A DNA stretch of 64,000 bases, from contig CAJINV010000001.1 of NCBI GenBank assembly GCA_905178155.1, positions 10,596,311-10,660,310 on the forward strand, given 5' to 3'. This DNA is from Amoebophrya sp. A120. Its lineage: Eukaryota; Protista; Dinoflagellata. This document shows, one piece after another, positions 1 through 64,000 of the stretch. How positions within the stretch are numbered: position 1 is the stretch's first letter; each line of letters opens with the position of its first letter. The notes below the pieces were generated by a model that did no database searches, had not been told where the DNA came from, and saw nothing but the letters and a program-made list of their open reading frames with translations. The translations under genes were made by a program, and so were the position numbers.

Positions 1-1
1 C

Positions 2-886: not shown

Positions 887-3800
887 ATGTCGTGCTGGTC
901 GTGGTAATTTCCTACTTGAGACGCGCAGAACAACAACTCTTTTCCACTCTTTGCTTCCGTAGCCGAGATTAGGCGTCGGTCTCGAATGGGCACAGTGAAA
1001 AAAGCGCAATTCATCTAATCAACAATGTCGCGACAGCGGGGTCGGAGACCAGCCTGTGACTGATATACAAAAGCAGGTCATCAAGAGCATCACGAAGAGC
1101 CACGAGATGGGTGACGGCGCGCACATCAGTAAGGCCGAGAACCTCGAAGCCGATCTGTTTTCCAACAGCAACAACCGATGGCACCTTTTCATGGCGCTCC
1201 GGCTGTGGCTCGTGAGCTTTTTGTTCCCTCTTGGGGCCGGCTTTGCCGACGTGGTTTACTTCTGGCGGTACGGGGTCTTTGCCGGCATCACGCTCCCGAA
1301 TCTCATTGCCTACGGCGTTGCCATCACCGAACGGTTTCTGCCGAACCACTTCGAAGACAAGTTGCAGCCTGACGAGGCGCAGCTCGCCCACAGGATCTCC
1401 TACCGCATGCACGATAAGCCTGGGGGTGTGCTGCTCGGCACCGTGGCCTGCACGGTGCTCGGGGCGGGCATCGCGGCCTTTGCCATGCGGGACCACCACC
1501 GCGTGGGGATTTTGTTCGGGTTGTTTGTCGTGGTGCTGGAAACGATTTCCGCCTGCCACTACGCCTTCGTGTTTCTGGAAAACCCACACGGAAACGAAAC
1601 TTTCCCGGTCGGGCTCCTCTGCTCCGCCACCGCGTTCGGCATTCAGAACTACTTCACGGCCCGCGGACCGCTGCAGATCAACACGGTGGGCATCACCAGC
1701 GTCCTGCAACGGATTCCCGAGCTGCTCTTCCGCGAGGTCTTGGATCCGGAACCCGGGCGCGCCAGCCACACCGCGCTCAACTTGAATGCGGCAGAGCAGG
1801 AGGACCAGTGGCATTTGGGCCGACGCGACTACGTGCGCGAAGGGACCGTGCTGCTGTGTCAGTTTTTCTTGGTGCCGGTTGGCTTTTTTCTCGGCGTCCT
1901 CGCAGCGGGGTACTCCTTCAGCCATATCCAAGAAAAAAACATTGTAGGTGTAACTTTTTTGGAGGAACAGCATTACAAATTTGTCTGGCATGACAGCAAA
2001 AACCTGTCATGCGCAGATAGTACGTGAAAACGCCCTTTAATGGATCCTACGATGCATGCCAAGCATGACACACACAATCATCTTGCATGATGCGCATCAC
2101 AAACTTACACTAACAACGTTTTTTTCTTGGATAAGCCAGCCGCACTTCGCACTCTCCGGGTACCCAATGGTGATTCATTTGTTGACGGTGTTACCCGCGT
2201 TCATTTTGCACGACATGATTCTGGTGCAGCACGAGCAGGGCGAGATTCGCTCGGAACAAGAGTTGCAGGAGGAGGCGGACGAAGCGCACCATCACCTGCA
2301 CGGCATGCGTGGCAGCAAGCAGCACATGACCGAGATGGCGGACTTCGCCGCGGCGCGGGGTGGTGAGGGCGAGTTCGACGATCTGGAAATGGAAGCAGGC
2401 GGCTACGATGAAGATGATTACGAAGGAGGGCATGTTGAAGTAGAGGATGCGGATGTTGACAACTTCGGTGGCAAACGACCCAGCGCTGGTACGGGCAAGA
2501 TGATGAAGAAAGGCAAAATGCCTCCGAAAGCGACCCCACCGGGAATGGGTGCCAAGTTTGCCGGCAAAAGCGCGATGAAAAGTGCGGAAATGAGTGCTAA
2601 GCAAGGCACTGCTGCAGGAAAAGTCAAAGGCGGCGCCGACGTGATGATGCCAGCGAAAGCGACGATGCCGGTGTCTTCGAAAGCTGCGTCGGCCAAAATG
2701 CACGCGATGGCACCGCATGCCGCTGCACCTTCTCCAGGGGGAAAGCCGGTTGGAAAGCCACACAGCGCCGAGGGAGAAATGCACGGCCCGGGAAAAGGCG
2801 ATCCGCTATCGCACGGTAAAGACGCAACGCACCCCGATCACAAAGGCGAGTTGCACAAAGGCGATCCGAGCGGAAAAGGTGTGTTGCCGGGGCACGAGCC
2901 GCACAAAGGTGATCCGGCCGGAAAAGGCTTGCCGCCGGGGCATGATCCGCACAAGGGCGATCCGACTGGGAAAGGCATGCCGCCAAGCCACGATCCGCAC
3001 AAGGGCGATCCGAGCGGGAAAGGCATGCCACCGGGCCACGATCCGCACAAAGGTGATCCGAGCGGGAAAGGCGTGCCTCCGGGCTATGATCCGCACAAAG
3101 GCGATCCGAGCGGGAAAGGCATGCCTCCGGGCTACGATCCGCACAAAGGCGATCCGGCCGGGAAAGGCATGCCGCCAGGCCACGATCCGCATAAAGGCGA
3201 TCCGTACGGAAAAGGGATGCCGCCTGGGCATGAGCACGATCCGCACAAGGGCGACCCGAGCGGAAAAGGCATGCCGCCAGGCCACGATCCACACAAGGGC
3301 GATCCGGCAGGGAAAGGCATGCCGCCGGGGCACGATCCGCACAAGGGCGACCAAGGCGGACCGAAAGGCATGCCGCCGCAGGAGCCGCACATGATGGATC
3401 CTAAGGGCAAAGGCAAAGCTAGCATGAAGGGCGAAGGTGAAGCCGCTCCTCCCGCCGGCCCAGGAGGTCCCGGGATGATGAAAGCAGGTCAAAAAATGAT
3501 GCCACCGGGCAAGGGCGGGAAGGAGGACGCGATGATGAAGGGCAAAGCTGCCCAAGACATGATGATGCAAGCTATGAAGGGCAAACAAGCCGACATGAAC
3601 ATGATGATGAAAGGTAAAGACGCCGACATAATGCTGAAGGGTAAGGACGCCAACATGATGATGAAGGGTAAAGACATCGACATGAAAGGGAAGATGATGC
3701 AGGGAAAACAAGCACTTCCGAAGCGTCCGCCGGGGTACTACTACCCAGAATTTGCGTCAGAAGTAGAAACCGACTCCGACAGTGATCTGCTGTTCAGCGG

Positions 3801-4281
3801 CAAGCGCAAGAGCAAAACCTTCAATCTGTTCGCCGGATCCAGAACTAGTAAAGAGCTCGTCGTTCCCAGGGAGAACATCTACCGCAGTGACGGAGAGGAA
3901 AGTGTAGACATTCTGGCCGAGACCGATGCCCTTCTGACGGACGAGGATTACTTTTATAGAACTTCATCCGGGGCTAGTACAAACAACTGCACCGGCGCCA
4001 GCGGCCTGAACGTGGTTGCCGTCACCTTCAACGAAGACGAAAGGGAATACATTCGCAATCTGCCCCCGAGAAATCGCGCGCCATTGAACAATCCGAATGT
4101 TCTCCGAAAGCACTACCACACGGTCCCAGACCCGCCGACAACCTCGTCTGACGAAAACACGGGAAGTAGCTCCTGGATCGTCTCCAGTGCTGTGCAGGCC
4201 CGTTCGGACGTGCGCTACGCCAGAGTGGAAAGGAAACGGGGACACGGACGGCTGCGACCGGCAAACTCGAACGCGTTCTGA
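887..4281 (+). CDS. DUF1275/YoaK-like multi-pass membrane protein with a long repetitive C-terminal tail
   Basis: Hydrophobic helices with GAGFADVV..GVFAGITLPNL and AFGIQNY..INTVGIT (DUF1275-like). Model: exon 887-903 (tentative), GT-AG intron 904-1036, exon 1037-1924, TIR element removed, exon 2139-4281. The junction reads YSFSQPHFALSGYPMVIHLLTVLPAFIL, completing a last TM helix. Confidence 0.7.
1925..2133. mobile_element. Introner-like TIR element (TAT...ATA, 5-bp direct repeat AGCCA)
   Basis: Left TATCCAAGAAAAAAACATTGTAGGTGTAACTTT vs reverse complement of 2101-2133 matches 29/33. AGCCA at 1920-1924 and 2134-2138. Removing 214 nt fuses ORF 1056 in frame to ORF 2056. Confidence 0.92.
2854..3390 (+). 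repeat. Coding 48-bp tandem repeat, about 11 copies of HKGDPSGKGMPPGHDP
   Basis: Directly visible in DNA and translation, with much third-position variation. Followed by MMKGK-type repeats at about 3530-3710. Confidence 0.95.
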
Positions 4282-4950
4282 TTTTTTTCGCGAAGGAGAA
4301 TCGAAAACGAACAAGAACAAGAAGACTTTGTATGTTTCTCACTGTACAATAATGCGACTTTCTGTTTCCTTCCTAGAAGCGCAAATCTCTAACTTCTACT
4401 TCACAACACGTAGTCAGTATGACGTGTACTGTACTGAAGCTGAACCAAAATCGATTTAGAAATTCATGTACAAAATGAGACTGTTGTGTAACGAAATTAA
4501 CGCTTTGCGGCTTTTACTTCCTGCTTCTATCAGTGTCTCTGAAAATGAAATGAAGAAAAAAGTTGAGGCTGCGATTTTTCGAGACAATGTACAAAGGAAC
4601 CCCAACAGAAGGAGAAAGCTATTGATTTGGAAACAAAGAATGAAAAAACGAAAACGGCGCCATCATTCGAAAAAGCGTTTACCTGTGGTGTTCTGCTTGT
4701 TTTTTGTTTTTACATGTCCCATGCTCTTCTCTTACAAGATCAACGACAGATCTTGACATTTAACAAGAAATCGAGTAGTAAAAATCTAATCTCAACATGC
4801 GCTCAAATCAAAATCATTTTGCGGAGAAGGAAGACGAAGATGTGAGTATGAGCCTCCTGTTTCTCGTAATGAAACTTGTATCGTAACAACTGAAGATGAT
4901 CCTCGTCAGGTAGCTTCTTGCCGCGGCGAATCAATTTCGCCCGCCAAAAA

Positions 4951-7579
4951 ATGATTGGCGATCAGTACGGCGCAATGAGCCGGCCCACGTTGCTGGAAAC
5001 GGTCGACCACCGCTCGGACGAGGGGTTGCTGAACGACCACCTCTACCGGTTACGCGCGGATATCGATATTCGCACGAGGCGATTGGAGCAGGAACGGAGG
5101 CGTCTCTGCGATCTGGAGGAGGGCGTTGCGAAGTGCCGTCGGGAATTCGAAACCAGACGAACGCGGTACCAGAAGCTCAAACACGAGTACGAGGGAAAAG
5201 CCGGAACGGAGGTAGGTGTTTTGCTCGTGCGGTAAACATGGTTTTCTCTCGGCGCACCTCTTCTGGTGGTTCGTATGATCTGCATCTGGTTGGGAGTCGC
5301 CTTTCGTGTGAAGTGAAAAACTCAACTTTTTTTTCAGCACGGCCAGGAGCGGTTACTGGAGACGCTGTTTCAGAAATTGAATCTCCTCCACCACAAAGAC
5401 TCCGAGTACGTTGGGACAATTACGAAACTTCGCCAGGAACGGAAAAAGGTTGATGGAATCTTCAAACAGCTCAAACAGGACATCCAGACACAAACGAGAG
5501 AGGTACTGACTTTGCCTATACCTATACGTCGCTCGCTCTTTTCTCTTGCGTACAAGTAAGTAGCGCTTTCGAGTGTTTTTGCATACCAAAATGAAAATTT
5601 TTTCAGCTGATCCGCGCCACCCATGTGTACGAGCAAGCGCAGGGCGAAAAGGAGGAGATGTTGGCCCAAACGAGATGCGTGGAAAAGCGCATGAAGGAGC
5701 AGCGGAAAGAATTCAAGGATATGGTCCAGAATATGCGGGAGGACTACGCGAAGCAGGAACGGATCCAGCGCGCCCTCCAGCTCCGGCAACAACGTGCGAC
5801 CTCTGCGACCGCAAGGAGTAACCGTCTGCAAGCCGATTCCCGGGTGACCCTTGGGCCTGGCGCCGGGCGGGGAGGCAAAGGCAATAACCAGCCTGCGTTA
5901 CCAGCACCCGGACCGCCTGGAGCAGGCAATAATTCTCGCAGTACAACTACCGCAGCTGCACATGGAGCTGCTGGTGTCGACCAGCAAAACAGAATACCAG
6001 TTCCGCCAAATAGCCTTCAAGCCGGCGGGTCCTCTTCTTCTACCCGAGGGAACTACCCTGCCGGACATCACAAAGGCGGTGTGTCGCCGTCAACCAGAAG
6101 TATTCTGTGGAAGAAGAAGCACGCGGCCAACCTCGACATCAGCATTCCAGAGGAGGAAAGGCAATTCGACGCGCAGGTGCTTTGTCGCCGGATCTTCCGG
6201 AACGCCTTTTTCAACGCGATTCAACGGCGCAGAATCAGGCAGTACACGAAGAACATCGAGATCTTCGTATTACAACGAAAAATGCCCCCACCCCCGAACT
6301 TGGGAGCATTTGTATTGCAAACCTTTCCAAATGAAACATTCGCCGTCTTGCATCTGTCAGCATCACAAGTTTCTTATCGTGAATAGCAAAAATTTGTATT
6401 GCAAAAGACCCCAGCACGAGCGGCTCTTGTCATGCAAGCGATGCGATCCATCCCTAGAATCAGCATCAGAAAGATTCATACTCCTTTCCTGCATGACAAA
6501 AAGTTTTCATTTGGAAACTGCTCATCACAAATATTTGCAATGTCAGGAATGGCAATGGGGGGCACTTTTCACTGTAATACTTCGACCAGGCATTTGACAC
6601 GATCAGGACCCTGACCGGGATACAAAATTTGGAGGAAATCGTGCGGATCTTCACGGAAATGGAGGACCGGTCCTACAGCTTGCTCACCTACGTCAACACT
6701 CTGCACGCCGACATTGAGCAGCTGGAGGTCGCGAACAAGCAAGCGCTGGACCACATCTACTCCGCGCGGCACCGACAGAATTCGCCGGACTTGGGCCGGA
6801 AAAAAGCGCTGTTGAGAAGTTTGGAATCCAAAATTCACCAGGAGGAAGCTGTCGTGTTGGAAAAGGAAGCGGATATACAACGAGGTAACAAGAAGTATCC
6901 AACAACTTTGTACGCCTTTTTATGTTTCTGTCTTCGCATTCTCTCTGAACCAAAACAATTACCCGCTTGCGATGCGTTCATCTCTCAAAACAGGTTTGGA
7001 TATCATCAGCAAAGTACGGGATCCATTACAGAAGACCGTTGAGGTCATGGGTGGGCTGCTGTTTGAAGCTTTGAAACTCCCAGAGGACTACAACACTCCG
7101 ACCGGACAGCGGCTCAACGCACTGACAACGCTGACGAAACAGCATGAGCAGGTAGATCGCTTGCAATGCCAATGCGATCTCGTAGAAGTTTCGTTCAATG
7201 GTGATCATGCATGTTGCCGCATCATTCCGCACTCGCAACAAACGAAGCTTTCTCACACCTACAGGTCCACGACAGTGCGTTGATTGTGCCAATAGAGGGA
7301 ATGCACATTCTTGAGAACATGCACGAACACCCGGTGCAAGAGCTGCTGAACTTCGTCGAGCATAACCTCTTACACTTCCGGGACTACATGGCCTCCTCCG
7401 CTCCATTACGAATCCTGAACAAGCCGGCGATTGGAAAAGCCATGCGAAAACCGCAAGATTTACCAACCGCGAAACTCGAAGACTCGGACACGGAAGGCGA
7501 CGAAATGCCGATGAGTCGCGCGGAGCTCCGCCTGGCGGTGGAAAAGTCCATTCATGCGAGGAAGAAAAAACGCGCTTGA
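4951..7579 (+). CDS. Outer dynein arm docking complex subunit-like coiled-coil protein (ODA1/CCDC114/CCDC63 family)
   Basis: Exons 4951-5211, 5338-5502, 5607-6267, 6585-6884, 6994-7151, 7265-7579; four GT-AG introns plus one TIR intron. The spliced motif IFDQAFDTIRTLTGIQNLEEIVRIFTEMEDRSYSLLTYVNTLHADIEQLE resembles the conserved ODA-DC segment. Confidence 0.8.
6268..6579. mobile_element. Introner-like TIR element (TAT...ATA, 5-bp direct repeat CTTCG)
   Basis: TATTACAACGAAAAATGCCCCC vs reverse complement of GGGGGCACTTTTCACTGTAATA matches 19/22. CTTCG at 6263-6267 and 6580-6584. Removing 317 nt restores a conserved in-frame motif. Confidence 0.93.
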
Positions 7580-8531
7580 TGAGGATGTGATAGAAGAAAT
7601 AGATGGATCAGTGAAGATCTGAGGCATGGATGTTTTTGAATCAGAATCATAGTTGATGCAGTATACACTCCTGAAATTTGTGACAAGCAAGTGCGTTTTT
7701 TGCTTCGGCGTTGTGCTTCTCGCTTCTGTATGATCTTCCAACAAGAGTAAGAGTTTCAGTTTTTAAGCGTGATGTACTGCAAAGCGTACATTTTTAAAGG
7801 TCAAAGACGTTCAAAGGTCATGGCGGCTCTCTGTAAAAGAAAAACCGCCTTCGCGAGTCAATCAGAACGCATCAAAATGTCTGTGGAACTGCGAAAAAAG
7901 GCAGGAACATCGGGAGGAAGCTGACCGAGCTGGCACCGAATATGGTTTGCAGCAGTACCGATTACTTGAACTGGCCGCCCTCGCTGAGAATTCTACTGTG
8001 TTCCACCTTGTACTGGAACAGGCAGCTTTTTCTGCCAACTACCGGTCTTCAATCGTTCCCGCGATTCGAACGAAGTGCGGCGACGAAAACGTGAAGAGCA
8101 TCACCCGGCTGAAATTGAAGCCGCTCGGCCGGGCGTCGCACGCTCCTCGCTGGCTAAGGCGCAGGAGCTTTTGGGCGCGGCGGATCTACGACGAAAACAG
8201 GGCGGCGCTACCTCCATGGCGTGACTCTCGCGAGCTAGCCGCGGAACTGCAAGGCGGCGGAATCCTTGCCCGTGGCCCGTACAGGTTTCCGCCCCAAGAC
8301 GCAGCCGGGGCGTGGCTGGTTGCCTGGCCGCAGCGCGATGGAAGGACCGCTTGGCCGCCCGCATTCATTGCGTGGGTGCGCCAGGCAACGCGATGGAGGG
8401 AATGCGCACGATCAGAAGTGGCGGCGCATGGGGCGCCCGCCATCGCCATTGCATTGCCCCCCTCCGGCGTCGCGCGGCCAGGGCCGTGGCGCAGACATGA
8501 TTGGGGCCCGGCGTGGGGCCCGAACGCGCAC

Positions 8532-8630
8532 CCGCCTCGGTTCGTTCAATTTTCGCCGCCGGGCCGCCTCGGTTCGTTCAATTTCCGCTGCCTCGGCTCG
8601 TTCAATTTTCGCCGCCTCGGTTCGTTCAGT
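8532..8630 (+). repeat. 24-bp tandem repeat x4 (CCGCCTCGGTTCGTTCAATTTTCG)
   Basis: Units start at 8532, 8564, 8588 and 8612; there is an 8-bp insert after the first and the last is partial. Confidence 0.9.
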
Positions 8631-9171
8631 CAGCGGGCAGCCTTTGCACTTCGTCCCGCAGCCCACTCGCCCCCTTCGTGGTTTAGTTGGAAAGCAGTCG
8701 CGCGCTGATCCTTTCGTAGGTTGGCGCCGAACGCAGGCGGCGCCAGCTCCAGAGCGGCGGAATGGGCTTGCGGAAATATGGGCACGGCGCAAATCCCGGC
8801 CGAGGAGGAGCATAAAAAAAGAGAGCCACGGCGGCGCCGCAGGGCCGGGCGCGCGCGCAGCGCGGCGGGGAGCTGGAAAGGCAGGGCGCGGCGCTTTCTA
8901 ATATATACCCACCGCCGCCCATATAAGTTCCGCGCACGCATGGCCCCGGCCTTCGCAAGTGCGAGGCTAGCGCCCGGGGGGTGCGCGGCCGTGGTGGCCT
9001 CCGCCGCCGCAACACGATGGGCCGCAAGCAACAACAAAAATAAAAGCGGCAGCGGCGAGGCGTCGCGAAGCGCTCGACAGCCGCCGGGCCGCCGCCTGGG
9101 CGGGCCGTGTGAATGTTTGTGCTTAGCTGGCCGCGCCAGCGTCGCGCGGGCCAATCGACCCCGCCGATTGT

Positions 9172-10397
9172 CAGACGGCCCGGCCCGGGCAAAATCAGGA
9201 CGGTAAAAGTTTGTTAAAATGTTGTTAATTTCCAAACTGCCTAGTTTTGGCGCCTTGGATTTTCCGGCCCGTTGTGCCACGGCCCCAGCCGTAAGGTTCC
9301 CCGCTTTCCGTGCCCCCGTCTGCTGCGCCGTTTCTGTTTGGGAGGCCGCCGCCGGTCTTCGACGGCGTTGCGCGCCCGGTCTCTCGGTGGCCCCCCCCTC
9401 CGCCGTACGCCAGGCGGCGCCCCTCCGGTCCTATGGCCTGGTGGGCCTTCGTGGTTTTCAATATTGGTCCGCGTGGCAGTGGCGCCGAGCGGCGGGAAAT
9501 GCTTGGGGGCCCACGCGCAGGCTGTGTAGTCTCCTTGTGGGCTTCCGTTTGGGCATTTATTTGGGCAAGCCGGGCAGAGCGGGCCTGGCCTTGGGCTGGC
9601 AAGTGTCGGCGGGCACCCCCGGCGTTTCCTGTGCTTTTGGGGTTTCTTTGTTTCGGGTCCGTTTTCCCGGGAGCCGGTTCTGGGAGAAAACACCGGGGCG
9701 ATTTTTCCCGGGAAGGCGATAAAATGTGCGTTAATTTTTGGGTTAATTTTTTGGGTTAATTTCATTTTAAGGCGATTCCTGTGGGAAATCGGCCCCAGGG
9801 AAATTAACACAAAAGATTAACACAAATATTAACACATATTTTAACACTAAAATTAACACAAGCCCAGCTCGGAAAATTAACACTGTCCCAAAGATTTTTG
9901 CTATGTGGGCGCCCCACCACAAAAGAAGCGCGGTTTTTGGAAGGCGAATGCGGCCGCGTCCCGCTTGGGTTTGGGACGGCCCACGCCGTGTCACTTGGCT
10001 TGCCGTGGCCGCCGGACAATGGGGGGTGGGGCGCATCGGGGTGGCCTGGGGGTTCGCCGTGAAGCGTTCGGCTTCCAGGGCAAACCACGGGCCACGCTTC
10101 CTTTTTCCCGGGGACAATCTGCACCAGGCGCCAATGGGGCCCGACGCTGCGCTTTTGCCCTATCCCCGCGGGCATAAATCTCGCGCGGCCCGCCCCGCGC
10201 GAAAACGCCCCGGCGGGCCCCCCCGCCCTTTGTGCTGGCCCGGCCCGCCCGTCGTCGGCTTCCCCGGCGTGGCCTGCCGGGTTTCCTCAACCAGCTGCCG
10301 CCGCAAAAAAAACTGGGGCAGCCGTTTGCGTTTTTCAGAATTAACACATAATTAACAGGAAATTAAAGCCGGAAGCTTGCCCGGGCCGGGCAGGTTG
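9172..10397. mobile_element. ~1.23-kb non-autonomous hAT-like TIR element, older copy
   Basis: TIR CAGACGGCCCGGCCCGGGCAA vs reverse complement CAACCTGCCCGGCCCGGGCAA matches 18/21. Flanks CCGATTGT/GCGATTGA match 6/8. Subterminal motifs and the central GTTAATTT/AAATTAAC array are shared with the element at 48252-49485 in opposite orientation. Confidence 0.75.
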
Positions 10398-11034
10398 GCG
10401 ATTGATTTATTTCCCGGCCCGAGCCTCCTCGTTTGTGCTTGTGGGGATGGAAGGAGGGGCCGGCCAGTCAGCAACCACGCAGGCAGGCAGGGCGCAGCAG
10501 GGTAGGCGCCGGCAGGGCCTGCGGGCCCGCCCTTCCTTGCACCAGCGACACCCCGTCCGACCGGTCGCAGCGCCCTGCCTGCAAGCAGGCCCGCGTCGGT
10601 GATTCGCGCCACAGAGGGGAGGCCTGGGATTCTGGCGCGTTGCCCCCTGCCTTCGCTCGTTTCGTGGCTGGCCACTGGCCCAGGCAATACAAGAAGGTGA
10701 ACCGCGGCCGAAGCAATGTGAACCTGATCCCTCTTGTGGAGACGATGGAGCACCCTGAAGGGCTAGTCAACATGAATTGCAGCAAGGCGATCTGGTCCGC
10801 CGTCAGATGTCCCATGCGCGCCGGGGGAGCATTTTCCCCCTAGATATCAGTGTTCGAAGCCGCCTTTGCTGCAGTAAAGACAGGGCAGTGAACGCTTCTC
10901 CTTCCGTTTTTCGTGTAATGTTATTGCCGATGGCATAATAAGAATAAAATATATAAGTACGATTGATACCTGCGGCCCACTGTTTGGGACAACCATAGAC
11001 ACACTCTCACTAGTGAAATTAATGATGGACGAAA

Positions 11035-11508
11035 ATGCAGCTTTTTGCGGTTGAACCCAAAGACGATTGCCCGCACGTCGGCGAGTGCGCCCGGAACGTT
11101 ACCGACTACGCCGACGTCAAGCTTGCTTCTGCAAAATGTCCCTCCTGCGACGAGCCGGATGAGAATTGGTTGTGCCTGAAATGCAAAGGGGTCTTCTGCA
11201 GCAGGTACAAAAACGAGCACGCGCTATTTCATTTTCTGGAGAACGACAGCCACTATGTCTGCCTGTCCTTCAGTGATTTGTCGTTCTGGTGTTACGCCTG
11301 CGACAGCTATGTCGTTGCCCCAGAACTCTTACCAATCCGCAAGCACTTCGAGGCAGAGAAATTCGGTGGCGAGTGTCAAACAGGCGTGGAGGCTATCGCG
11401 CAGCTGGTGACGGGGATAGCTGGAAGCAGCTCCACTGGTGAGACCGGGGGCTCGTCGTCGAGTACAGGTGGGGGCGCGTCCTCATCAAGCCGTGCGCCAC
11501 CAAATTAA
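11035..11508 (+). CDS. Stand-alone zf-UBP (BUZ, HDAC6-type) ubiquitin-binding zinc finger protein
   Basis: FAVEP..CPH, CxxC, ENWLCLKC..VFCSRYKNEHALFH, H..CLSFSDLSFWCYACDSYV: the full ZnF-UBP ligand pattern. Confidence 0.9.
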   Translation: MQLFAVEPKDDCPHVGECARNVTDYADVKLASAKCPSCDEPDENWLCLKCKGVFCSRYKNEHALFHFLENDSHYVCLSFSDLSFWCYACDSYVVAPELLPIRKHFEAEKFGGECQTGVEAIAQLVTGIAGSSSTGETGGSSSSTGGGASSSSRAPPN

Positions 11509-12182
11509 TGAGTTTCGCGATTTTGCTTATCAATTTTGACGTTTGCGTTTCCAATCACTTGCATTTTCAGAACGAGTTATCATCCAAGTTTAATACCCGC
11601 GTCGGTGACCTACAGGGCACCGGATCATATCTGCACTGATTCACTACTGCAGTGGTCAGCTGGGAATAATGCGTGCACAGAACGCCATAGACATCCAGAT
11701 TGGGACGCGTTCGTTATGTATCTTTTGTGAGCGCTACGGAGCGAAATCGGTCTTCTGGGTTGGGTGTTTTTTCCTATTCTACTCGCGGGCACAATTTGCG
11801 AAGCAACCTCCTGGGCATTTGTGGCAGATCGCCAACTCCCCTTTTTTTGTTTTTGTGCAATAGGCGGCCTGGACGGTTCCTTCGAGTGAGCAAAATTCTG
11901 GAGAGTCTCGATTCTATTGCTTTCGAGCACGAGAGAGTCTCGACCGGCAAGTGAATACTGCTACTTGGTGGATGCTGCGACCGAAAGTGCATGTATCTTC
12001 AGGCCACAACAAGGAGGGCACCATACTCATAGAGTATAGAAGACGCACCGTCTCAAAACGAAACATAACCGAGATATAATCTGCAAAAATATGCTTTGCG
12101 TTGGCACCAGCTGAAGATCCGGGCGAAAAATTTTTGATTACAAGGAGAGTCTTCCTCTCTGAATCACCCTCTCTTCCTTACT

Positions 12183-15100
12183 ATGGAAGTCGAATCCGAT
12201 GATCGGGTCGAGTACCAGCCGGCCACCGCGCCGCCGCCAACTCGGACCGTGGCCTCCCGCCCAATGTCGGCGCACCAGCCCTACAACCAACGCCGGCAGG
12301 GACCACAAAAGCAAAACCACGCGGACCGGCCCATTTCCGCGAAACCGAACCTGCAGGAGAACAAGGCCTCCGCGTCCTCTGCTCAGATCCTGGATGGCTC
12401 ATCTTCGTCCCCGAACCGATACAGGACCAGTCCGGACAGAAATTATTTCGCGGCAGGTGCTGGTTCCGGTGTCGGCGCTTATCAGCAGCAAGTACCAATG
12501 CCGACGAACATGGCAAAACCGCTTTTCTCCTACAACACCGCCGCGTCGTCCTCAACTGCCCGCGGAATGATGACTCACCAGCAACAGCAAGTGCAAGAGA
12601 TGAGAAAAACTTCTCGTACCTACGGGTCCGGTAGCGCAGCCGCGGCGCAGCACGCGCAGCGAGTGAACGGCTCGTTCGCGGACCACCTTCAGGCTGTGTC
12701 GATGAAGGAGCCGGAAGCGCCCCTCGCACCATCGGTGTCTTCGCAAAGAACGAGGCCTGGGGTAGGGAGTCAAAAGCAAAGCAATGAAAAGGGAAGGAGC
12801 GTAAGTGGTCGAGAACCCACAGGCAAGGAAACGATTCCGCAGTCCAATACAGCCGGTCCTCGTGGCAAGCAGCACCAGCAGCCGAACTTCCGGCAGGTGG
12901 AGCAGAATCTTTCGAGCCCGAATAAGCAGTTTTTCTTCTCTCCCGACACCTTCCCCTCGGTCAGAACAGGCGGACACGTGCAACCGGCGCGCCGGGAACC
13001 GGATCCGACGACGAGCAACCTGATTTTCTATCACGACGAACCGGAGGACGACGTGTTTTTCGATCCGGCGATGGAGCCGCAGGAGCCCGATCCCGGTCGC
13101 GCAGCGAAGAAATCCAGTAAAACTTTCCGCTACAAGTTTGGTCCAGCCTCGACCGTGTACGGGAAGGACCGAACGCTGAACTACACAACGCACTTGACCG
13201 ACATCGCGCACTACCGGCCCTACTCTGCGCAGCCGGTGGTCGAGGCCAAGCCGGTTTCCCGGCCGGTCAGCGCGTCCGGGTACGAAGACGGAGGCATGGA
13301 CGTGTTTATGGAGGAAGAGCCCGCGCCGCACGGCCACTTCGCGCACCGCCTGGACCCGGACCGCCCACGCGCCCAGTCAGAAGACGCGTATGGCTCCGGC
13401 GGTGCAGTACCGGGTTCCCTGCAAGTAAGAATGCAAGCAGACCGCGCGTATTCCGATTTGCCGCCGGAAACGAACGTGTTCCTTGAGCCCGCCGGGATAG
13501 CCGCGAAAGCGGTAAAGGAACCGAACGAAACGGGCGTCCAGATGGTCCGGCCGCCGAGCGCAATGGCTACTGCTGTAGCTGCTCCGGCGAAACCCGATGC
13601 AGCGAAACCACCGAAGCCGGCGAGCAAGCAGCGCCAGATTGTGTTTTCGGACAAAACCGCGAGTAGCTCGGCATCCAACGCTGCGCAGCCACCATCCAAC
13701 GCCGCTGCGTCTTCAGGCTACGGGTTAGGGAGCCAGCGGGTGGGCATCCAGGACATCTTGGCGCAGCCGGAAGTGCAGCAGAACGTGCCCCAGGTGCGGA
13801 AACCGCCGGTCGGCAAGTTTGATAAGGCTCCCCCGGGCGGGGACCCGCAGAACCCCTCGGTGCTTGCCATCCGACCCAGCAGCGCACGACCGCCACCGCC
13901 AAACCCCAAGATGGAGATCAAGTTGCCTCCCACGCCGTTCCACCAAGCGGTATTGAGTTTTCCCTGGATTACTGATATGGATATTGCATAAACAAGAACT
14001 GTCGAGGAAGAGGAGGAGCACTCCGACGCACATAAAACGCAAAAAGTGACTGAATTTCATACTCAGGCGAAGCAACTGGGCCCTCAGTGGACGAAGCTGA
14101 GCCGGCTTTATTCCGCACCTCCTAAACGTCCACCACCAGCCTTGGATCCAGGCGCACCGCTGGAGCGCGTCATCCCAGAGCCGGAATTCGAAACGCGCAT
14201 GCCTGTGAACAAACGTACTGAAACTGTTATGGGTAAAATCATTCTATGGTGATTGCATTGGAAGAAGGGTCGGCTCATGTGAATCGTCGTGTGCAAGTGC
14301 ACTTGCACAGAGCAAAGCGCCCACTTAGTACTTATGAAGAGAACAAAAGAGAATCATGAACCACGACAGGTAAACTCGTGGAGCTGCAACAAGCGGCACT
14401 AGCCGGGGACCGCAGGCTTGTCAAAGCCTACTGTATCACAAACAAAAAGTATCTCCACTGCACAGACGATGACGGCTTCACGCCACTGTATTTTTTGCTG
14501 CGATAATATTTTCATCCGAGATGATGTAGTTGACGTAGTTGTTCCGAGAGCAAATTGTTCATCCCTCAAAAAACCTTCTCAGCATCCTCTGTCACGCAAA
14601 TACAGGCACTACGCGGCCATCGGTGGAAGCGGCGAGTGTTTTATCAAATGTAAAAATGTCTGGGTCTGGAAGGGTTGGAACTTGTGATGCAAACTCTGGA
14701 ACACACAAAAAATTGTGTTGCATGACCGCCAAAAGCTGTCCATTTCTTGGCACGCAAGTAGGAAGTTTCTCATGCGGGACAGGCATCATGAGGCGTGCTC
14801 AACACCTGTGAAGCTTTTGCCTGCATCAGACGCCATTTGCGTGATCCGAAATATGCATGACAAATCTCGCAATCTTCCAGACCCAGACATTTTTACATTT
14901 GATATGTTTCCGGCAGATGCTGTACGCGGGGGCGGACCCCGAGCACTTCGGCCGGGGTCGGTGGACGGCCGCGCACGCCGCGGCGGCGAACGAGCAGACG
15001 CACGTGTTGCAGGTGATCAAGGAAGAGTGTCCGGAAATGTTTTCCTTCACGGACGACAAGGGGTGGACACCGCTCGAGTGGCTCCGGGTGGTGGTGGCAA

Positions 15101-15291
15101 AGACTTCCAAGGGTCCGACCGTTGGGAAAACCCAGTCTGCGCGGAACCGCAAGTCCTTGCTGCAGCCGGAGGTGCGGGAGGTCTCCAGATTCCACCACCC
15201 GCTCGCGCATCGGGACGAAAAAATCATGATGAGCAGAAGTGCACGGCAGGGGAAGAGCGCAAGGCCAGGGATTGGCGAGTGGCAGAGATAA
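12183..15291 (+). CDS. Low-complexity protein with C-terminal ankyrin repeats
   Basis: Exons 12183-13949, 14067-14248, 14606-14641, 14910-15291; two GT-AG introns and one TIR intron. Spliced: LWHYAAIGGSGECFRQMLYAGADPE..GRWTAAHAAAANEQ..DDKGWTPL. Confidence 0.8.
14642..14904. mobile_element. Introner-like TIR element (perfect 31-bp TIR, 5-bp direct repeat TGTTT)
   Basis: TATCAAATGTAAAAATGTCTGGGTCTGGAAG (14642-14672) is the exact reverse complement of 14874-14904. TGTTT at 14637-14641 and 14905-14909. Removing 268 nt restores an ankyrin repeat. Confidence 0.96.
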
Positions 15292-15690
15292 ATGCATCTC
15301 TTGTTCCATGATGGCGTTTAACTGATGTACTGAAACGTCCATGATGTTCTTCGCTGCACATTCGTGCAGTGCTGACTCTGACATTCTCCGCGCACGCAGC
15401 GTGCGATTACTTAGAAACACACACATAAGCATCCCCAAACAATGACTTTGTGCAGGGGTTTCGTCCCTCCAACTGCCATGGTGGTTACATGCAGCAGCCC
15501 TGATGTTCCACCAACATAGTGGATTCATATTATGCGAACGTCTTCTTCTTTGCATTCGATTTTCGACCGTGATTCGTCTGTGGCATTCTGAAACTGTGTA
15601 AGTAGAGTGCTCGCACATGATTAGAGTGCCTGTTCACGATCAAAATCCAAAACCGACGGCTGATGCTCGTTTTATCGTCATGTGCTACCG

Positions 15691-18873: not shown

Positions 18874-19443
18874 TAGGAGCACTCGCTGCCAAAGAGCAAT
18901 TTTTGAGAACTAATGATCTCGTCGCTCGGCGTGAAAAACGCTTGTTCTTTATTCATTGATTGTATGTGCCTTGTGGTATTCCGCCAAAAAATCCTCGTTG
19001 TTCCCCTTTGATGTCGCGTATGCCTTAGAGGTTCATCGACTATGCTCCGGCATTCGCTTTGTCGAGAGAGTTACAACACACGGCTTCTGAACAACCTCTA
19101 ACTATCTTGTTGTCAAATCGAAGATCGCTCGGTGTGCAGCAGCAATGACGTTTCCGTCCTCGTTGTTCGGCCTGAGTTTTCGTCTTGTCATCGTAGGCAC
19201 CTGTTTAGATTTTCATTTTCGGTGATTGGCGAACTTTTTACAACATTATTTCACTTCTGTGTTAAAGTCAAAGAGAAGAGGTGAAGCTCAAAATCGCGCT
19301 ATGCGTAACTATCAAAACTTGACTGCGCTGCCACGATGATGTCCAAAACGACGCCGCTCACCCGCTCTCTCGTACGCTAGCACCGCCTCAGCCGCTGCAA
19401 AAATTGTCGGCGTTCACGCATTAGAAGCCATCTGCGACGCGAG

Positions 19444-49646: not shown

Positions 49647-49783
49647 TTCTATTATCCGACATCGACTCTCTTTATTTTGGAATCTATGTTCTGGATTACG
49701 ATTGATATCGGAGAATAATTCATGATGAAATTCCGAATATTTCTGCAAAGATAAAAAGATTTTCTTTCATCATTCGAAAAAGT

Positions 49784-50190
49784 TATTCCAAGAAAATCGA
49801 AAAAAGAGATTCTAATTCTATATCGACATCAATTTTGAAAAAGATATTCCAAGAAAATCGAAGAAACAGATTCTATATCGACCGAAATTTTGAAAATCAT
49901 TACAATATTTTTTCGCAAAATGGACATCTCCTACTTAATTTATTTCGAGACTTTTTCGAAAATTTTTCTGTAGTCTTTATTTCAGATGATTTTTCGGAAG
50001 AAAAAAGCGTGGAATCTTCATCCTATGAAGAAATCAAAGATTCGAAAATCTTATCCAAAATCATAAATCTTGATGAAGATGATGATGGATCCAAATCTTA
50101 TTCGAAATCAATGATTCAAAAATCGAAAATCTCATCCAAAATCCTCAAGATATCAATGAATCTCGATGATGATGGATCCAAATCTTATTC
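49784..50190 (+). repeat. AT-rich imperfect tandem duplications (periods of about 61 and 81-87 bp)
   Basis: TATTCCAAGAAAATCGAA...AGATTCTA occurs twice (about 49784 and 49845). GATGATGATGGATCCAAATCTTATTC occurs at 50078 and 50165. Confidence 0.8.
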
Positions 50191-54200: not shown

Positions 54201-57200
54201 GCTCTGAATGGTACTGCGTCCGCTGACCGGATTTTTCGTCGTTACTTCCGGCTGGAAGTTGTATCCGCTGGGCTGATGGGTGCCGCTGACTTCTCTAGAG
54301 GATCTGAGCTCCGCGATCTGGCCCGTTCCGGTTTTTTCCGCCCATTGCGGTAGGTTTTCAGGCGTCGCGTGTTTGGGTCCCGCTCCCCCGTCCACGTTCT
54401 GAATGTTCAAAGGCCACACCGCGTCGCGCTCCAGTACCTTGAACTGCACGGCGTCGTCCCCCTGGAACCGGAAGGCGCTGGAATGGATTGACGCCCCCTT
54501 TTGTTTCACTCCCCCCGACATCATGCTCGACTTCCTCCTGGACTTCGCAAGCTTGCTCGACTCCCTCCCGTCCCCGGAGGTGCTCCTCTTCTTGTCGCCA
54601 CCCACCGACCGCCGCGACACCTGCGATGGGGCTTTGCCTTCCAACACCCGGAACTTTACGCTCTCGCTTCCCATGCCCGCGAAAGCGTTGGAATTGACCG
54701 CGATAGGATCCCCACCCGGCCGGAGTCCTCCCGACATCACCGAGGACTTTTTCCGCGACTTCCGCTCCCCACTGCTGGGGCCGCTGCTGCTGCCCGGTTT
54801 GGACGACGTCCTCCCGCTGCTGGGGGGCGCGCCAGGAGTCCCGGACAATCGGTCCGGCGTCTCGGCCCTGCCCGAGGTCAAGGCACGAGGGTCGACGCCC
54901 CGCTGCATGTCGATCGGTTGGGTCGTGTCGCGGCCGAGGTAGGTCGAGTCCACGTTTTTCGAGTCGGGGGCTTTCCCGGACACACGCCCCATCGCCTTCG
55001 CTCGCAGCGCGGTCAACTTCTCGGAGGCCATCCTGGACCGACGCCCCGCTCCGCGGAAGGACACCTTGCCGTCGGGGTTCGAGGAGTCCGACGAGGAGCC
55101 GCCCAGCTTCGTGGTAAGCGAGTGCGGGGACGTCTCCAACCGTACCTTGCGCGACAGGTCGTCGTGGATGTCCTCGTCGGGCAGCGTGGGCGCGTTGTGC
55201 TCCAACAGGTGGTCGCTATCGTCGTCCGCACCCGCGTGCGCGTCCTTCGTGGCCACGTGGTCGTAGTGCACCAGCGGGCCGCCCGGAACGCGCCGGCTGC
55301 CGAACATGGCGTCGTAACTGTTGCTGGTTGTCTGTCGCGCGCCCGAGTCCAGGTTGCTTTTTGGGCTCTCCGTGGAGATTGCGTCGCCCTGCGGGCCCTC
55401 GGGAACGTCGGGGATGCCGAAGTCGGGCGGTTCGGCATCTTCGGCGGGCTCCTCCGTGAGAATCTCCTCCTCCTCGTCTTCCAGCGGCGGCTCCTCCTCC
55501 TGGGTCTCCTCCAATGGCTGATCATCATCCGCCGGCTCTTCCCCGACCTCCTCGCTCAACGGCTCCTCCTCGAGGACCTCCTCGCTCACCAACAAACTGT
55601 CCATCATACCGTCGTCCGCGAAGGCCACGGCCCGCTCCTCGACCTGCAGTGCGCCGAACGAGTGCATCATCGCGTCGCCGGCCGCCGCGTTGCCCTCCTC
55701 CTCCGCCGGGCCTCCCACCGCGCAAGCCAGCACCGAAATGCAGCACATCACCAAAATCACCAATGCCACCAGCAATATGATGCACCACTGTGGTTTCAGA
55801 GTGAAGGTTGAATTTATCTTCGTGGAAACATATCTAATTTATCTTCGTGCTTGAACAAGCGGGCTCCATTTTTTCGCACGAATTCCGTGCAGCGTTGAAT
55901 GAAAAAAGACACGGTCTTCACGGCCTGAAAAAGCAGAAATGCGTAGTATTGCAGCAGGTAACAGTACTCGTATGGGAAAAAAGTCATTATAAGTACTTAC
56001 CTTCTTGCAGGCCGATGTCTCCTCAGTCTTCTTGTGCGATCCGTCGGCGCCGGACAGAGGGACCACAACTGGCGGACTTTCAGAGACGGGCAGAATGGGA
56101 CCAACCGGAAGAGGAGGAGTGGCGAGGGGGTTCATGGGCTCCTGCAAGAGCCCGCGGGAATTCCGGTCCAAAGCGTTCAATATTTCGTCGTCGGTACCCG
56201 GGCAAAAGGACCTTCCGTCGGGACACAAAACATAGCCTTGCTCCGCCATCAGCATCTGAAAAAAAGGATCGTTCAGCAGAGCCGACAAATCCCACCACCC
56301 CGAGGGTGTCGGCGCTGGAAAGTAGCCGGAGCCGCCCTGGTCGCTCCACGTCTGGTGCGGGAAGTGGTTCCGCAGCGCCATTGCATCCAGTGGTGCGTTA
56401 CCCGACACTGCCCGCGACTCGAGCTGATCAGGGGATAGGAATTCCATTTTTCTATCCAAGAAAAAACCGCAAGTGTCGGAGTTCTGTTCTGGTTCTGAGA
56501 AGCGGAAGCCTCGGTCAGATGACAAAAACAACACTTTAATACTTCTACTCACGAAAACATGCAAAACGATACGATGCCTCCAAACGAAGTGCTCCGCATT
56601 GCACCCGGACATGATAATGTCCGTCAGAGGCAAAGAACGATGATTGGAGTTTACATACTGTACCAAACGCTATACAAATCTTGAAAATTCAGTCTAAATA
56701 CATGCTCGAGTTCCATTTTCACCAAAAAGAACCTCGACTCTCACAATAAGTTTTTTCTTGGGTAGTCTCCGCTCTGAGGGTAATACACCGCGTACCGTCC
56801 AGGATCGACGGTGGTATCTTCCGTTCCGACCGCTTGCGCCGTCTTCGCGTCCTCTTCGAGCGACCCGGCTAACTCGTAGCCTCCACCCGGACCGTACAGT
56901 TGGTTGGGACCATAGCCGCCGTACTGTCCATCGGCACCTTCGTAGAACTGCCCCGCCCCTGCTGCACCCTCGGGGCGCCCGTTCCCCCGCAGTGGACTGC
57001 CAACCGCCCGCGAGCCCGCCCCGGAACCGGCAATGCCTTGGCTGGACATGAGGCCTCCCGCTCCGTGGTTCCCAGGATGTCCACCTGCCATTCCGGGGCC
57101 CCAGCCCCCCGGTCCGCGGGCCTCGTCGCCGCCTGCAGCAAGGGCACCCGCGCCGGCAGCTCCCGCCCCGAGCGCGCCCGCTCCAAAGGCGCCAGCACCC

Positions 57201-60200
57201 AAATTCAGGCCCCCCAAAGTGATGGGTTTACCGTCTCGCCCAATCGGTAGTCCCCTCGACCTATCGATGGGGATGGCGGGAACGCGCTGCACAAGGATGC
57301 CGATCCCGTAGTCGACCGGATTCCGGTCGCTGTAGGGGTCGTGCGGATGGCTGTAGGGGTCGTGGTCGTTCCGGAGGTGCTGGGGTCCGTGCCGGTTGCG
57401 ATAAGGGTGGTACCGACTCCCTGGACCGCGTCGTCGTACCAGAAGAGGCAAGCCGTGCGGGAGCATGTCGGCACCGGACGGGTACCACCCCCAAGAGTAA
57501 CGGGAACCAGGCATCTCGTACTCGTAGTAATGTGTACCTCCCGCCCCCAGTACCATTCCTCCGGCGGCGCCACCGGGTGGTGGTGCGATTGGCAGCCGTT
57601 CCTGCGACGCTCGGTCAGGGAGGTGGGGCGCCCGACCCCAGAAGTTCCAGCGCTGCCTGGCCTCTCCGAAGACAAACGTGGCGAGAATCCCCTCCATGAT
57701 GTCCCACGCACCCGCGGCGTCCCCCAAGCCGAGTGCGCGAGCCAGCGAGTGATGCGGAACGTAGATGACCACAAAGAGAGCGTGCATGATTTGCGTTGGG
57801 GTGCAGTAGGATCCGTCGTCTCCCGTCCACGCATCGTTCTCATCACCATAATTTGGCTTCTGGTATCGCGCCAGCGGAAAGGGTATGGGTGGCGACTCGT
57901 TCCCGCCATTTTGCACGGCCGCGTTCCAGTTTTCCACGGCCCGCCGCTCGCCGGCAACCAGCTCGTCCACCAACTCGGCGTAGAACATGAGTGGATCTTG
58001 CAGCGGCGGTAGCAGTGCGTCCGCGTTTGGCGCAACATCTGCCCCGCCGGCGCCCTCGCCGTCCTCGAAATAGGTTGCGTCCGGTTGCTGGCTCTGCAGA
58101 AACGATTGGTCCCCTGCGAAGTCGAGCTCCCTGTTCCGCACGCGTGCATCCTGGTGCCGGAGCACCATTTCTTCCAAGTCCATCACCGTCCGCTTTCCTG
58201 CCACCTCCTCCAGCTCCTCGCGGCGTCGCTGATGGATCTGGAAGCTGTCGGGAAGAAACTTGTAGCCCAGCTCTTCGTACCTCGCGGGAAAAATGAAGTG
58301 CGACCGCGGCGGGTCAACCTGTACGTTGTACGGATCCGGATCCTTCTCCCGCAGGATCTCGACTGCCGCGAAGATGTGTAGGTCGTCCATCATGTTTCCA
58401 GGTTCCTCGTCAGCAACCATCACAACGTCGCGCCGCGATACCGCCGGCGAGAGACGATAGAGCAAGTACATCATAGCAGCCCGATGGCTCGGCTGCGCTC
58501 CCCCCATCTGCTCTCTGCCCGCCCCTTGGGGGTTGTGAGTGGAAAGTTGGTCTTGGTCCAATTGAGACTGCACGTACTCTATCGCGCGGTCGTACAACGA
58601 GAGGCCCGCATTGAAAGGTTGCCGCTCGCCGCCCAGCGTCAGCTCGTTGGCGGTCAGCCTCTGGTGGTCCAGCAAAAACACAAACACCTGGTCGCGCTGG
58701 TCCTTCTCGAGAGCGTAACCACGGTAGCCATCCTGCGTAACGTACTCGTCCATCCGCTGCGTCTGGCGGTTGAACCGGGAATACTCCGCGAAGACCAGGA
58801 ACCTCACGTCCATATGCTTCGCCAGAAACTCCTGCATGTTCGGTGCTGCAATCGCTCGGAAGTCTTCCCACGTGCAGAGGATGAACGTACCAAGCTGCTG
58901 CTCTTGCTTTTTCTCCGTGTACGTTGGGTTGAATTTTGCCAGCGGTCCCGTACCACCACCGTTATCAAATCTCTCCATCAGCTCCCCCAGGCCGGACCAG
59001 TATGGCGTTTGGCAACTGTTACAGTCGGAACTGGTACATGAATTTCTCATGCAAAACGAACATCAACATGAACATCCACAAGGTGAAGCTGCTTCACGTG
59101 GCAAAAAATTCTGGAAAGGCTACACAGCACCTAAATCTACTGTGTGGACGAATTTGTAATGTCACAGGTGAAACCGCCCCGCTTTGACTTTTCCCATCCT
59201 TGCATCACAAATTCATGTAACAGTTGAGAATGTAAAAATTGAGAACGCCATAACCAGACGATGACGGTTCGGAACGCGAATCCGGCTTTGAAGTCTTCGT
59301 AGGTCTCTGCGTACCTCTCTTCGAAGTCTGGCTGGCTGATTTTGAACGCTCCGTGAGGCAAGATCGCGTGAAAGCGGTCCACCAGCGCACTTGTGAGCGC
59401 GGCGCGCACGTCCTCGAGCCGGTCGCCCATCTCATCGAGCACGAACAGGTTTGTGTCGCCGACCGCGTGGAAAAGGTGGGGCGGCCCCGCTCGTTCCTCC
59501 GTCGAGAATTCCAGGGCCACGGCATCGGACGAGCCGCCCGCGGGAGTCCCGGCGCCGAAGCTTATCCAGTACCCTTCCGCGTCGATGAAGCCGTGCTCGT
59601 CGCCGGACGAAGCAATCAGGTTGTTCTGTTGTTCGTTTTTGAAGATGCACACCGGGACTTGGCAGCTTTCTTTCTCGAGCTCTTCGTAGTGCTGGTCGCA
59701 GGCGTCTTCGGTGTCCACCTCTCGGTTGATTTTCACCGTGCGCACGAAGGGCCTGGCCCAATGCTCCGTGGGATGTCTCGAACGAAACAATGCGCGGCGG
59801 AGTTCGTTGTGCGGAAAGTAGTTCTTCCGGACCTCTCGGTCCCCGGGGCACCGCTTGCCGCGGTAGGGTTCCGGGATGTTCGGGAAGTCCACTATCTCAC
59901 CGGTGAGCACGTCAATGTAGGGATCCAAGGGGAACGTCCCGTCTGTCGCATACAAAGAATTCTCGCTCTCGCGCACGCGCTGGATCTGCGTTTGCACATC
60001 AAATCGCTGAACCGGCGGTGCTGCAAGGTCCTGCTGTGGATATTCGGCCGTCGGTACTCCTGGTCCTGCCATTCCATCACTCATATCGTCCCATGGTTCT
60101 TGCTGCAGGTCCTGCTGCTGCTGCTGCTGGGCGCGGGTCTTGTGCGTGTCCAAAAACGAAAGTGCCGCTTCGTGCGAGGACGCGGGGAGCTGCTGCGTTT

Positions 60201-62781: not shown

Positions 62782-64000
62782 TCACGTCTGCGCCCCCGCT
62801 CCCGCCCTCTCCCGTGCAGCATCTGCCGCCGCCTTTTGCCGCAGCGCGATGAGCAACTGCGTGCGGATGCGCTTCATCCGTTTTTGCCGGGACATCTGCA
62901 TGTGGTGGTGTACCATCGACGCCACCTCGTCCCCTTGCCGGTCCTCGTCTCGGGCTGTCTGGGACGGTCGTGCCCCCGCGGAGGCGTCTTGCACCCCCGC
63001 TGGGGCCGCCGAACCGGTTGCTTTCTCCGCGTTGGCCGCAGACGTGGCGGAGCGAAACCCCTCGGGATACGTTTTCATCAGCTCCTCAACAATGTCGACG
63101 ATCTCCTGCCTGTACCAAGACTGGTTCGCCTGTTGCGCGGCCTCGCTCCCCTGCAGCGCCCGCCAGATTGGGCCCCAGGCCACCGGGTCCCGCGCGGGCC
63201 AAGCGGGATTCAAAGGGAACACAAACCCGTCCGCGACGCGGTCGGCCAAAAAGGCCCGCAACTCCGGCTCGGTGACCGAAAACCAGGACTTGCTTTTCGT
63301 CGGCTTGTATGCTCTGCAAAAATATCGCACTCGTATTAATTGCAATGATGCATGACAAATCTTGTTTGTTAGCCAAATCAGCATTACAAACTTCATTTTT
63401 CCTTCTGAGAAGATTTGTATTGCGATTTATACTAGTGCGATGCTTTTGCAATGCATAGCTTGGTCCTGCTCGGTGGGCCGCCTTGATGTGACGTTGGTAT
63501 CCCCGATGCGGGAGCTGTAGTCCCAGCGGCAGAAGTCTTCGCGCCGTCCGTGATGTTGTCTCCTCCATCTTTGTCCCAGATCACGAGATACTGGTCGTCT
63601 TGCTCCTGCGGAAACAGAAAGTTAAAGCACTCGGCGCCGTGCCGTACGGCGCCGCACTCCGCCATTGCGGCCACCGTCTTCGCGATGATGTCGATGGATG
63701 TCGGGTCCCCGAAGCCGTAGGTGGGCAGCCCCGGATTGAAGTTCCCCTGTTCGCAAGCGGCGGTCAAAACCTGCAGCCAGTTGGAGGTCCAGCTCTTGCA
63801 CGTGCGCCCGGCCGCGTCGTCCGCCGCCTGCGTTTCGAGTAGCTGCCGCGTTTGCTGCAGACACCACTTCTGCAGCTCCACCTGCTTGGCAGGCAAAGCG
63901 TCGTAGCTGATGGGACCCCGAGAAGCGATCAAGAGAGTGTCAAAGTCGCTCACCACCGGGTGGACACACGCTTCTTCATAGGCGACGAGCAATCCCAAGG
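62782..64000 (-). CDS. Class II (anthrax EF / CyaA / ExoY-type) nucleotidyl cyclase-like protein (5'-partial)
   Basis: HPVVSDFDTLLIA, GAVRHGAECFNFLFPQEQDDQYLVIWD and GFVFPLNPAW occur in the order of the EF/ExoY motifs. The two ORFs join in frame after removal of the TIR element. The 3' end is uncertain. Confidence 0.62.
63308..63457. mobile_element. Introner-like TIR element (150 bp, 5-bp direct repeat GCTTG)
   Basis: TATGCTCTGCAAAAATATCGCACTCGTATTAATTGCAAT vs reverse complement TATGCATTGCAAAAGCATCGCACTAGTATAAATCGCAAT matches 32/39. GCTTG at 63303-63307 and 63458-63462. Removing 155 nt gives SRTK-PTKSKSWF in frame. Confidence 0.93.

Follow-up and report, generated by a model that had tools for sequence, protein, structure and literature searches.

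What removes an intron whose ends carry no GT-AG signal, and what decides where it is cut? The question is raised by a 64,000-nt stretch of the Amoebophrya sp. A120 genome (contig CAJINV010000001.1, positions 10,596,311 to 10,660,310; "the window" below), in which short elements with TAT...ATA ends, inverted arms and flanking direct repeats interrupt genes on both strands. Our analysis favors the reading that these are transposon insertions that leave the transcript together with 5 nt, probably by cuts at a fixed distance from their end motifs. A sequence-only reading of the window had reported seven elements. All seven are real and lie where it had placed them (7/7, with a TAT start and an ATA end, GTA for 56453-56764); an eighth, decayed element at 46108-46323 had been overlooked. 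The elements are numbered as follows, together with one canonical intron.

Element 1: 1925..2133, + strand; 209 nt, repeat AGCCA; in a gene for a DUF1275 membrane protein (Pfam); putative intron 1924-2137
Element 2: 6268..6579, + strand; 312 nt, repeat CTTCG; interrupts an outer dynein arm docking gene (ODAD1 coiled-coil, PF21773)
Element 3: 14642..14904, + strand; 263 nt, repeat TGTTT, arms perfect over 31 nt; interrupts an ankyrin exon; member of a high-copy family
Canonical GT-AG intron: 44168..46051, + strand; 1884 nt; shares its transcript with elements 8 and 4
Element 8: 46108..46323, + strand; decayed, TAT..ATA, flanks AATCT / TTGTG; intron 46107-46327, with ends TT..GT
Element 4: 46460..46751, + strand; 292 nt, repeat TGACT / TGCCT
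Element 5: 56453..56764, - strand; 312 nt, repeat GAGAC / GAAAA on the gene strand
Element 6: 59001..59252, - strand; 252 nt, repeat ACCAG on the + strand; in the same gene as element 5
Element 7: 63308..63457, - strand; 150 nt, repeat GCTTG on the + strand; in a gene for a cNMP-binding-domain protein, PF00027

Window elements belong to a published introner class

Exons of two window genes are 100% identical to P0001 and P0002, protein records named Amoebophrya sp. A120, which places the elements in that organism. Introner elements of A120 were described in 2021 by Farhat et al. (PMC7789003), whose text gives 29,850 repeated introns in A120, inverted repeats composed of TAT, seven variable bases and then at least three A, and direct repeats of 3-5 nt at exon borders, one of 5 bp being given in the Fig. 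S19 legend. The same text treats the families as specific to the strain (A25 versus A120) and describes the position of the border as variable or unknown. The window elements are a sample of this already known class in a published genome. The sequence-only reading had noted that inverted-repeat introners with non-canonical ends are reported from Amoebophrya; since class and organism are the same, it had overrated their novelty. The genome of another strain, with canonical introns, is presented in PMC12005148. A fixed register with one cut 1 nt ahead of TAT and the other 4 nt past ATA (-1/+4), orientation independence and a test of end pairing are stated neither in the text of PMC7789003 nor in the available portions of PMC11282704, PMC11453091, PMC12130899, PMC12005148, PMC13326754 and PMC10045372; some of it may be shown in Figures 3 and S19-S25 of the 2021 study or in the other 38 of the 58 A120 rows in the dataset of PMC12130899.

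GC content is 34-47% in the elements and 55% in the window. TAT stands at 13 of the 14 ends of the seven elements and TAC at one. Five of their seven direct repeats proved perfect on recheck, as had been reported (AGCCA, CTTCG, TGTTT, ACCAG and GCTTG), and two are imperfect, matching at 4/5 bases for the element at 46460 and 3/5 for that at 56453. A scan for TAY...RTA pairs returned five candidates with an arm score of at least 20 and a perfect 5-bp repeat, compared with none in each of 20 local dinucleotide shuffles of the window. For the five perfect cases the earlier reading had found no register with GT-AG, GC-AG or AT-AC ends, and the gene strand gave the same result. Its description of the arms as mostly unrelated beyond TAT could not be kept: most carry an A-run near positions 11-14 (weak in element 6), in agreement with the motif published for A120. 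The terminal 14 bases are identical in elements 1 and 5, and the pairs 1/3, 3/4 and 3/7 have short stretches in common. Element 8 begins TATCAAGAAAA and finishes TTTTTCATA, and its direct repeat is fully diverged.

The target duplication is uniformly 5 bp

A scan with the arm of element 3 supplied a larger sample: it matched 133 stretches, and the 80 of them that were listed all belong to a single other assembly. From this related assembly 132 overlapping loci (525,738 nt) were stored, and 323 elements were defined solely by TAT...ATA ends and arm similarity. A perfect 5-bp repeat flanks 242 of the 323, and 4/5 bases match in 41, while four have a perfect 3-bp repeat, one a perfect 4-bp repeat and none a perfect 6-bp repeat. 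The target duplication is uniformly 5 bp, and the TAT/A-run logo recurs in the 242 related elements. These counts bear out the proposal of a DNA transposon with terminal inverted repeats (TIRs) and a 5-bp target-site duplication (TSD).

Duplications of fixed length at unrelated sites, as in miniature inverted-repeat transposable elements (MITEs), come here with no strong target preference: G occupies position 5 of the repeat in 73/233 cases and A position 3 in 66/233. Target composition thus stays near background, and no constraint is apparent on the first intron base or on the last two. The idea that insertion at NNAG/G proto-splice sites recreates GT-AG borders was ruled out, AGG standing at positions 3-5 in 3/77. 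When 300 nt on both sides were tested for an open frame, 67 of 195 cases were open after removal of the element plus 5 nt, 23 at +3, 15 at +4 and 5 with the element kept. A 180-nt version of the test was non-discriminating (184/201 open at +5, 168-174 at other lengths).

The families are repeated in A120 and beyond. In the DNA-like run X5, 7,139 contigs match window positions 1-20000 and pile up on elements 1-3, with a summed contig depth of up to 108,272 on element 3 versus ~25 on unique DNA. Another assembly holds near full-length relatives of elements 1, 2, 3, 6 and 7 and none of 4, 5 and 8; copies there are 87-97% identical to three window elements, including one 95% identical to element 1 (locus L021) and two 97% identical to element 3 (L008, L075). 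A search for a transposase gave 0 Pfam families in 14 open reading frames (ORFs), six from locus L070 and eight from two larger window elements. The six derive from the longest copy with a perfect repeat, of 2940 nt (L070 6256-9195), which has near-perfect arms, a perfect GCCGT repeat and no long ORF.

Two further features of the copies were recorded. Contigs of X5 place elements of the 1925-14904 families only ~25-40 nt apart elsewhere in the genome, and similar short gaps occur in related loci; exons of 25-40 nt would constrain how splice sites can be paired. A 972-nt copy (L031 5001-5972) interrupts a gene that we take to encode the largest subunit of RNA polymerase II.

Removal together with 5 nt is supported for each element

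Four runs (X1-X4) consist of assembled contigs. None is recorded as RNA, and we call them RNA-like and treat them as RNA because 8005-10672 is uncovered in X1 and a GT-AG intron is missing from the contigs of all four. Removal of the element plus 5 nt, with the non-GT-AG ends of A120 introners, is supported by these contigs for three elements (1, 4 and 8) and at the protein level for the other five. At element 1, a contig of X1 joins 1919 to 2134 with the predicted 214 nt gone. The joint 46457-46755 at element 4 likewise lacks the predicted 297 nt, so that the proposed loss of element and one repeat is met with in RNA-like contigs at both sites. An unambiguous joint 46106-46328 lacks 221 nt at element 8; this joint, that of element 4 and the joint 44167-46052 of the GT-AG intron each appear in 4/4 runs of one sample. 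The contigs that skip elements 4 and 8 skip the intron 44168-46051 too, and the coexistence with GT-AG introns that had been claimed is thereby seen in one transcript. Contig depth for the joined form of element 8 is 174-260, versus 3.9 for the retained piece.

At the remaining sites the expected deletions are matched by protein records (elements 2, 5, 6 and 7) or by a homolog (element 3). The A120 record P0002 reads KNIEIFDQAF across the site of element 2, where the A25 ortholog P0003 is colinear without a gap in a comparison made at the protein level. Homolog P0005 aligns gap-free across the 268-nt removal at element 3. Translation with elements 5 and 6 both removed equals P0001 at 1716/1716 residues, and translation with 155 nt removed at element 7 is 100% identical to P0006 over 353 aa. 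Protein records encoded by the window itself are annotations, not independent experiments.

Might the elements instead sit unspliced in genes that are dead, or might element-free DNA alleles account for the joined forms? Such an explanation could draw on elements 5, 6 and 7, for which no bridging contig is among the RNA-like contigs listed (no evidence either way), and on elements 2 and 3, whose joints are absent among the contig rows listed. The raw RNA runs X7 and X8 leave the genes uncovered, with 98 and 1 reads matched, on the arm of element 3 only. The joined contigs at elements 1, 4 and 8 contradict it for three elements, and those at 4 and 8 lack a GT-AG intron as well. Moreover, DNA-like X5 enters element 1 from both sides, and at five sites protein records and homologs run on without interruption. 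We give this explanation hardly any credence.

Two observations concern element 3 and its host gene. In about 95 reads of X7 the element 3 arm (14871-14905) is flanked by different sequence, which implies that the same arm is present in RNA of another strain or species. Over window positions 11026-15291, homolog P0005 combines a zf-UBP domain and ankyrin repeats in a single protein, and the window exons that match it may form one gene, despite their coverage by two separate RNA-like contigs.

Cuts at three elements fit one register

The exact joint of element 8 places the first cut one base upstream of TAT and the second four bases downstream of ATA, removing 216 + 5 nt, and a low-depth retained contig with 0 differences to the window confirms the genomic letters at both borders. 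At element 4 the joint may slide two places to the right and the A of the left repeat is kept, which leaves 3-5 left-repeat bases in the upstream exon. P0001 reads QSG-E-MEF at element 5, and the Glu fits only with 3 or 4 repeat bases in the upstream exon. As elements 8 (exact), 4 (3-5) and 5 (3-4) all fit four kept bases, they point to one common register. The imperfect repeats TGACT/TGCCT and GAGAC/GAAAA, which had been put forward as a check on the cut, are both compatible with it. The introns are thus likely cut at -1/+4 in either orientation.

This register puts TA at intron positions +2/+3, as in the ordinary GTA donors of the window. It also predicts N-T starts, and all nine predominant A120 non-canonical splice types in Table S4 of PMC7789003 begin N-T, none of them TA. 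Non-canonical introns of A25 start with TT and have TTA repeats, according to the text of that study; they may show the same +2/+3 pattern, and a +2T/+3A donor rule could cover the A25 TTA elements.

End motifs rather than a terminal stem may set the cuts

The sequence-only reading had held that the RNA stem positions the splice sites. In such structure-guided spliceosomal splicing, to which the text of PMC7789003 also leads with its proposal that hairpins join exon boundaries and its statement that U1 small nuclear RNA was not detected, the stem would join the exon ends and the cuts would fall at a fixed offset from its base. A stem would account for orientation independence too. Elements 4 and 8, however, are removed at the expected length with their terminal triplets unpaired: the in-register terminal pairing probability is at most 0.03 in both, and element 8 has 2.2 expected arm-arm pairs and a predicted fold no better than that of its shuffles (z 0.06). 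Counted on the sense strand, arm mismatches give G-U to A-C ratios of 62:76, 118:129, 158:186 and 178:200 over the first 10, 15, 20 and 25 positions (225-257 of 267 strand-called elements), without an excess of G-U over A-C. Element interiors have no G-U/A-C skew, and conserved pairing of intron ends of the euglenid type was not found. Removal of two elements lacking predicted terminal pairing, combined with the missing G-U excess, argues that the stem is probably not the ruler and speaks against the claim as first made.

Several points weigh against the preference for end motifs and an exact register. Terminal stems are predicted, with near certainty, in six of the eight window elements, and element 4 retains an offset stem of ~17 pairs; pairing could still bring intron ends together. 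The G-U test has limited power, being made mostly on young, arm-selected copies with strands inferred from ORFs. Separate donor and acceptor roles might lead one to expect asymmetric arms, and the composition of the 5' and 3' arms on the sense strand does not differ (all positions p>0.33); a departure test of the arms gave p=0.004 at one of 24 positions (position 24). Eight of the nine Table S4 types in PMC7789003 end A-N, which the -1/+4 register does not predict, and aligner bias or older introns may explain these endings. The case for the exact register consists of one intron, two bounds and a partly consistent table. The four runs behind it are one sample, available as contigs only, whose RNA nature is guessed, and the bound at element 5 is taken from an annotated gene model.

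Weighing both sides, we lean with moderate confidence toward end motifs as the ruler and regard a measuring role of the stem as rather unlikely. The stem may be helpful in young copies and appears dispensable.

A relaxed spliceosome could read the element ends

The data directly support a fixed 5-bp duplication, repeated families, removal of the element plus 5 nt and one exact register; we infer that a splicing machine stands behind the removal. Orientation was assessed with 91 elements and the eight of the window, with gene strands inferred from ORFs. Both orientations occur, since 107 family pairs have the same and 124 the opposite orientation to the inferred gene strand (pairs are not independent), in keeping with the earlier suggestion that removal may be orientation independent.

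The explanation we find reasonably probable is that the elements are non-autonomous DNA-transposon insertions with a 5-bp duplication, removed as introns by a relaxed spliceosome that reads the end motifs and cuts at -1 from TAT and +4 from ATA. A transposase would insert the element at nearly random exon sites and duplicate 5 bp. Removal of the element plus 5 nt would bring back the original coding sequence, so an insertion would cost no amino acid. The intron would have the form N-TAT...ATA-NNNN, in which the host target supplies the first base and the last two, and these would be free. If checks at +1, -2 and -1 were relaxed, a spliceosome could accept N-TAT for a donor and TTTT..ATA-NNNN for an acceptor. 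The inverted-repeat ends would offer it an identical donor motif (TAT..AAAA) and an identical acceptor motif (TTTT..ATA) in either orientation, which would make removal orientation independent without base pairing.

The unconstrained first and last intron bases would also suit an endonuclease and ligase that read the element ends outside the spliceosome, as suspected in euglenids, and act beside a spliceosome reserved for GT-AG introns; the available portion of PMC11282704 describes euglenid TIR introns that leave as circles without lariats, by an unknown mechanism. Set against this are the TA at +2/+3, which resembles the GTA donors of the window, the same +2/+3 pattern in A25 introns with a TT start and TTA repeats (PMC7789003, text), and the handling of tunicate non-canonical introns by modified spliceosome parts, described in the accessible part of PMC13326754. 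We judge this explanation improbable.

More tentatively, and at somewhat short of even odds, the relaxed-spliceosome reading may extend to tens of thousands of Amoebophrya introns. The machine would ignore the first and the last two bases, need no pairing of the ends and count -1 from TAT and +4 from ATA, an offset that cancels the 5-bp duplication and would render any insertion silent at once in any orientation or codon phase. A fixed register, free end bases, orientation symmetry and a dispensable stem would make the splicing mechanism of the published elements accessible to specific tests. If true, the -1/+4 rule would let annotators place ~30,000 A120 intron borders correctly, and would explain how insertions spread at so little cost.

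Other repeats in the window

Three stretches outside the TAT...ATA families were observed. A 1234-nt intergenic element (48252-49485) has arms that start CAGGCAGCCGG and a perfect 8-bp flanking repeat, AGATGTAT; its five ORFs have no Pfam match, and it is presumably a non-autonomous hAT-type transposon. Inside the 1884-nt GT-AG intron lies a 1.7-kb stretch (44216-45935) whose ends are inverted over 28 nt and which contains GC-rich palindromes at 44966-45349; neither a flanking repeat nor, in three ORFs, a Pfam match was found. The GC-rich stretch 8005-10672, with no cover in X1 and many variant letters in DNA-like X5, is probably another repeat.

Comparison with known systems

The elements resemble several described systems to different degrees; each comparison is with the portion of the cited source that was available. 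IS3EU/GingerRoot transposons (PMC10045372) have TA..TA termini, and Ginger2 makes 4-5 bp duplications. The window class has such termini (position 2 is A at both ends in 267/267 elements and position 1 is T in 266 and 262, with a finder that allowed one change in six terminal bases). IS3EU/GingerRoot, however, usually duplicate 6 bp, whereas perfect 6-bp repeats are found in 0/323 elements here. Given that difference and the fact that no transposase was found, no superfamily can be assigned. Four matches to viral contigs lie in AT-rich DNA and were taken as chance.

Nonconventional introns of euglenids (PMC11282704) likewise have TIRs, TSD-like junction repeats, non-canonical ends and a probable MITE origin. 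Their stem is conserved at +4..6 / -8..-6 and they are excised as circles, whereas no selection for pairing was seen in the window elements. MITE-derived introns of Fritillaria borealis (PMC11282704, PMC13326754), with TIR and TSD, are similarly tolerated by an altered splicing machine; these prefer the ends AG-AC and AG-AT, whereas the +1, -2 and -1 bases of the window elements look free.

The closest matches come from A120 itself. Families reported by Gozashti et al. in 2025 (PMC12130899, dataset sd07) are TIR DNA introners with mostly non-canonical annotated ends and no known superfamily; in the 20 rows consulted of the 58 for A120, the duplication calls are 2-5 bp or missing, and one common register is not specified. 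The annotated splice counts of that dataset look biased to canonical dinucleotides and were not used. Finally, the A120 introners described in the text of PMC7789003 are identical in organism, in TAT-N7-AAA inverted repeats, in border direct repeats, in a length of ~240 nt, in the lack of an internal transposase and in their occurrence in genes mixed with canonical introns. No difference in kind separates them from the window elements, for which we find a uniform 5-bp duplication, a -1/+4 cut, both orientations and a terminal pairing that looks dispensable.

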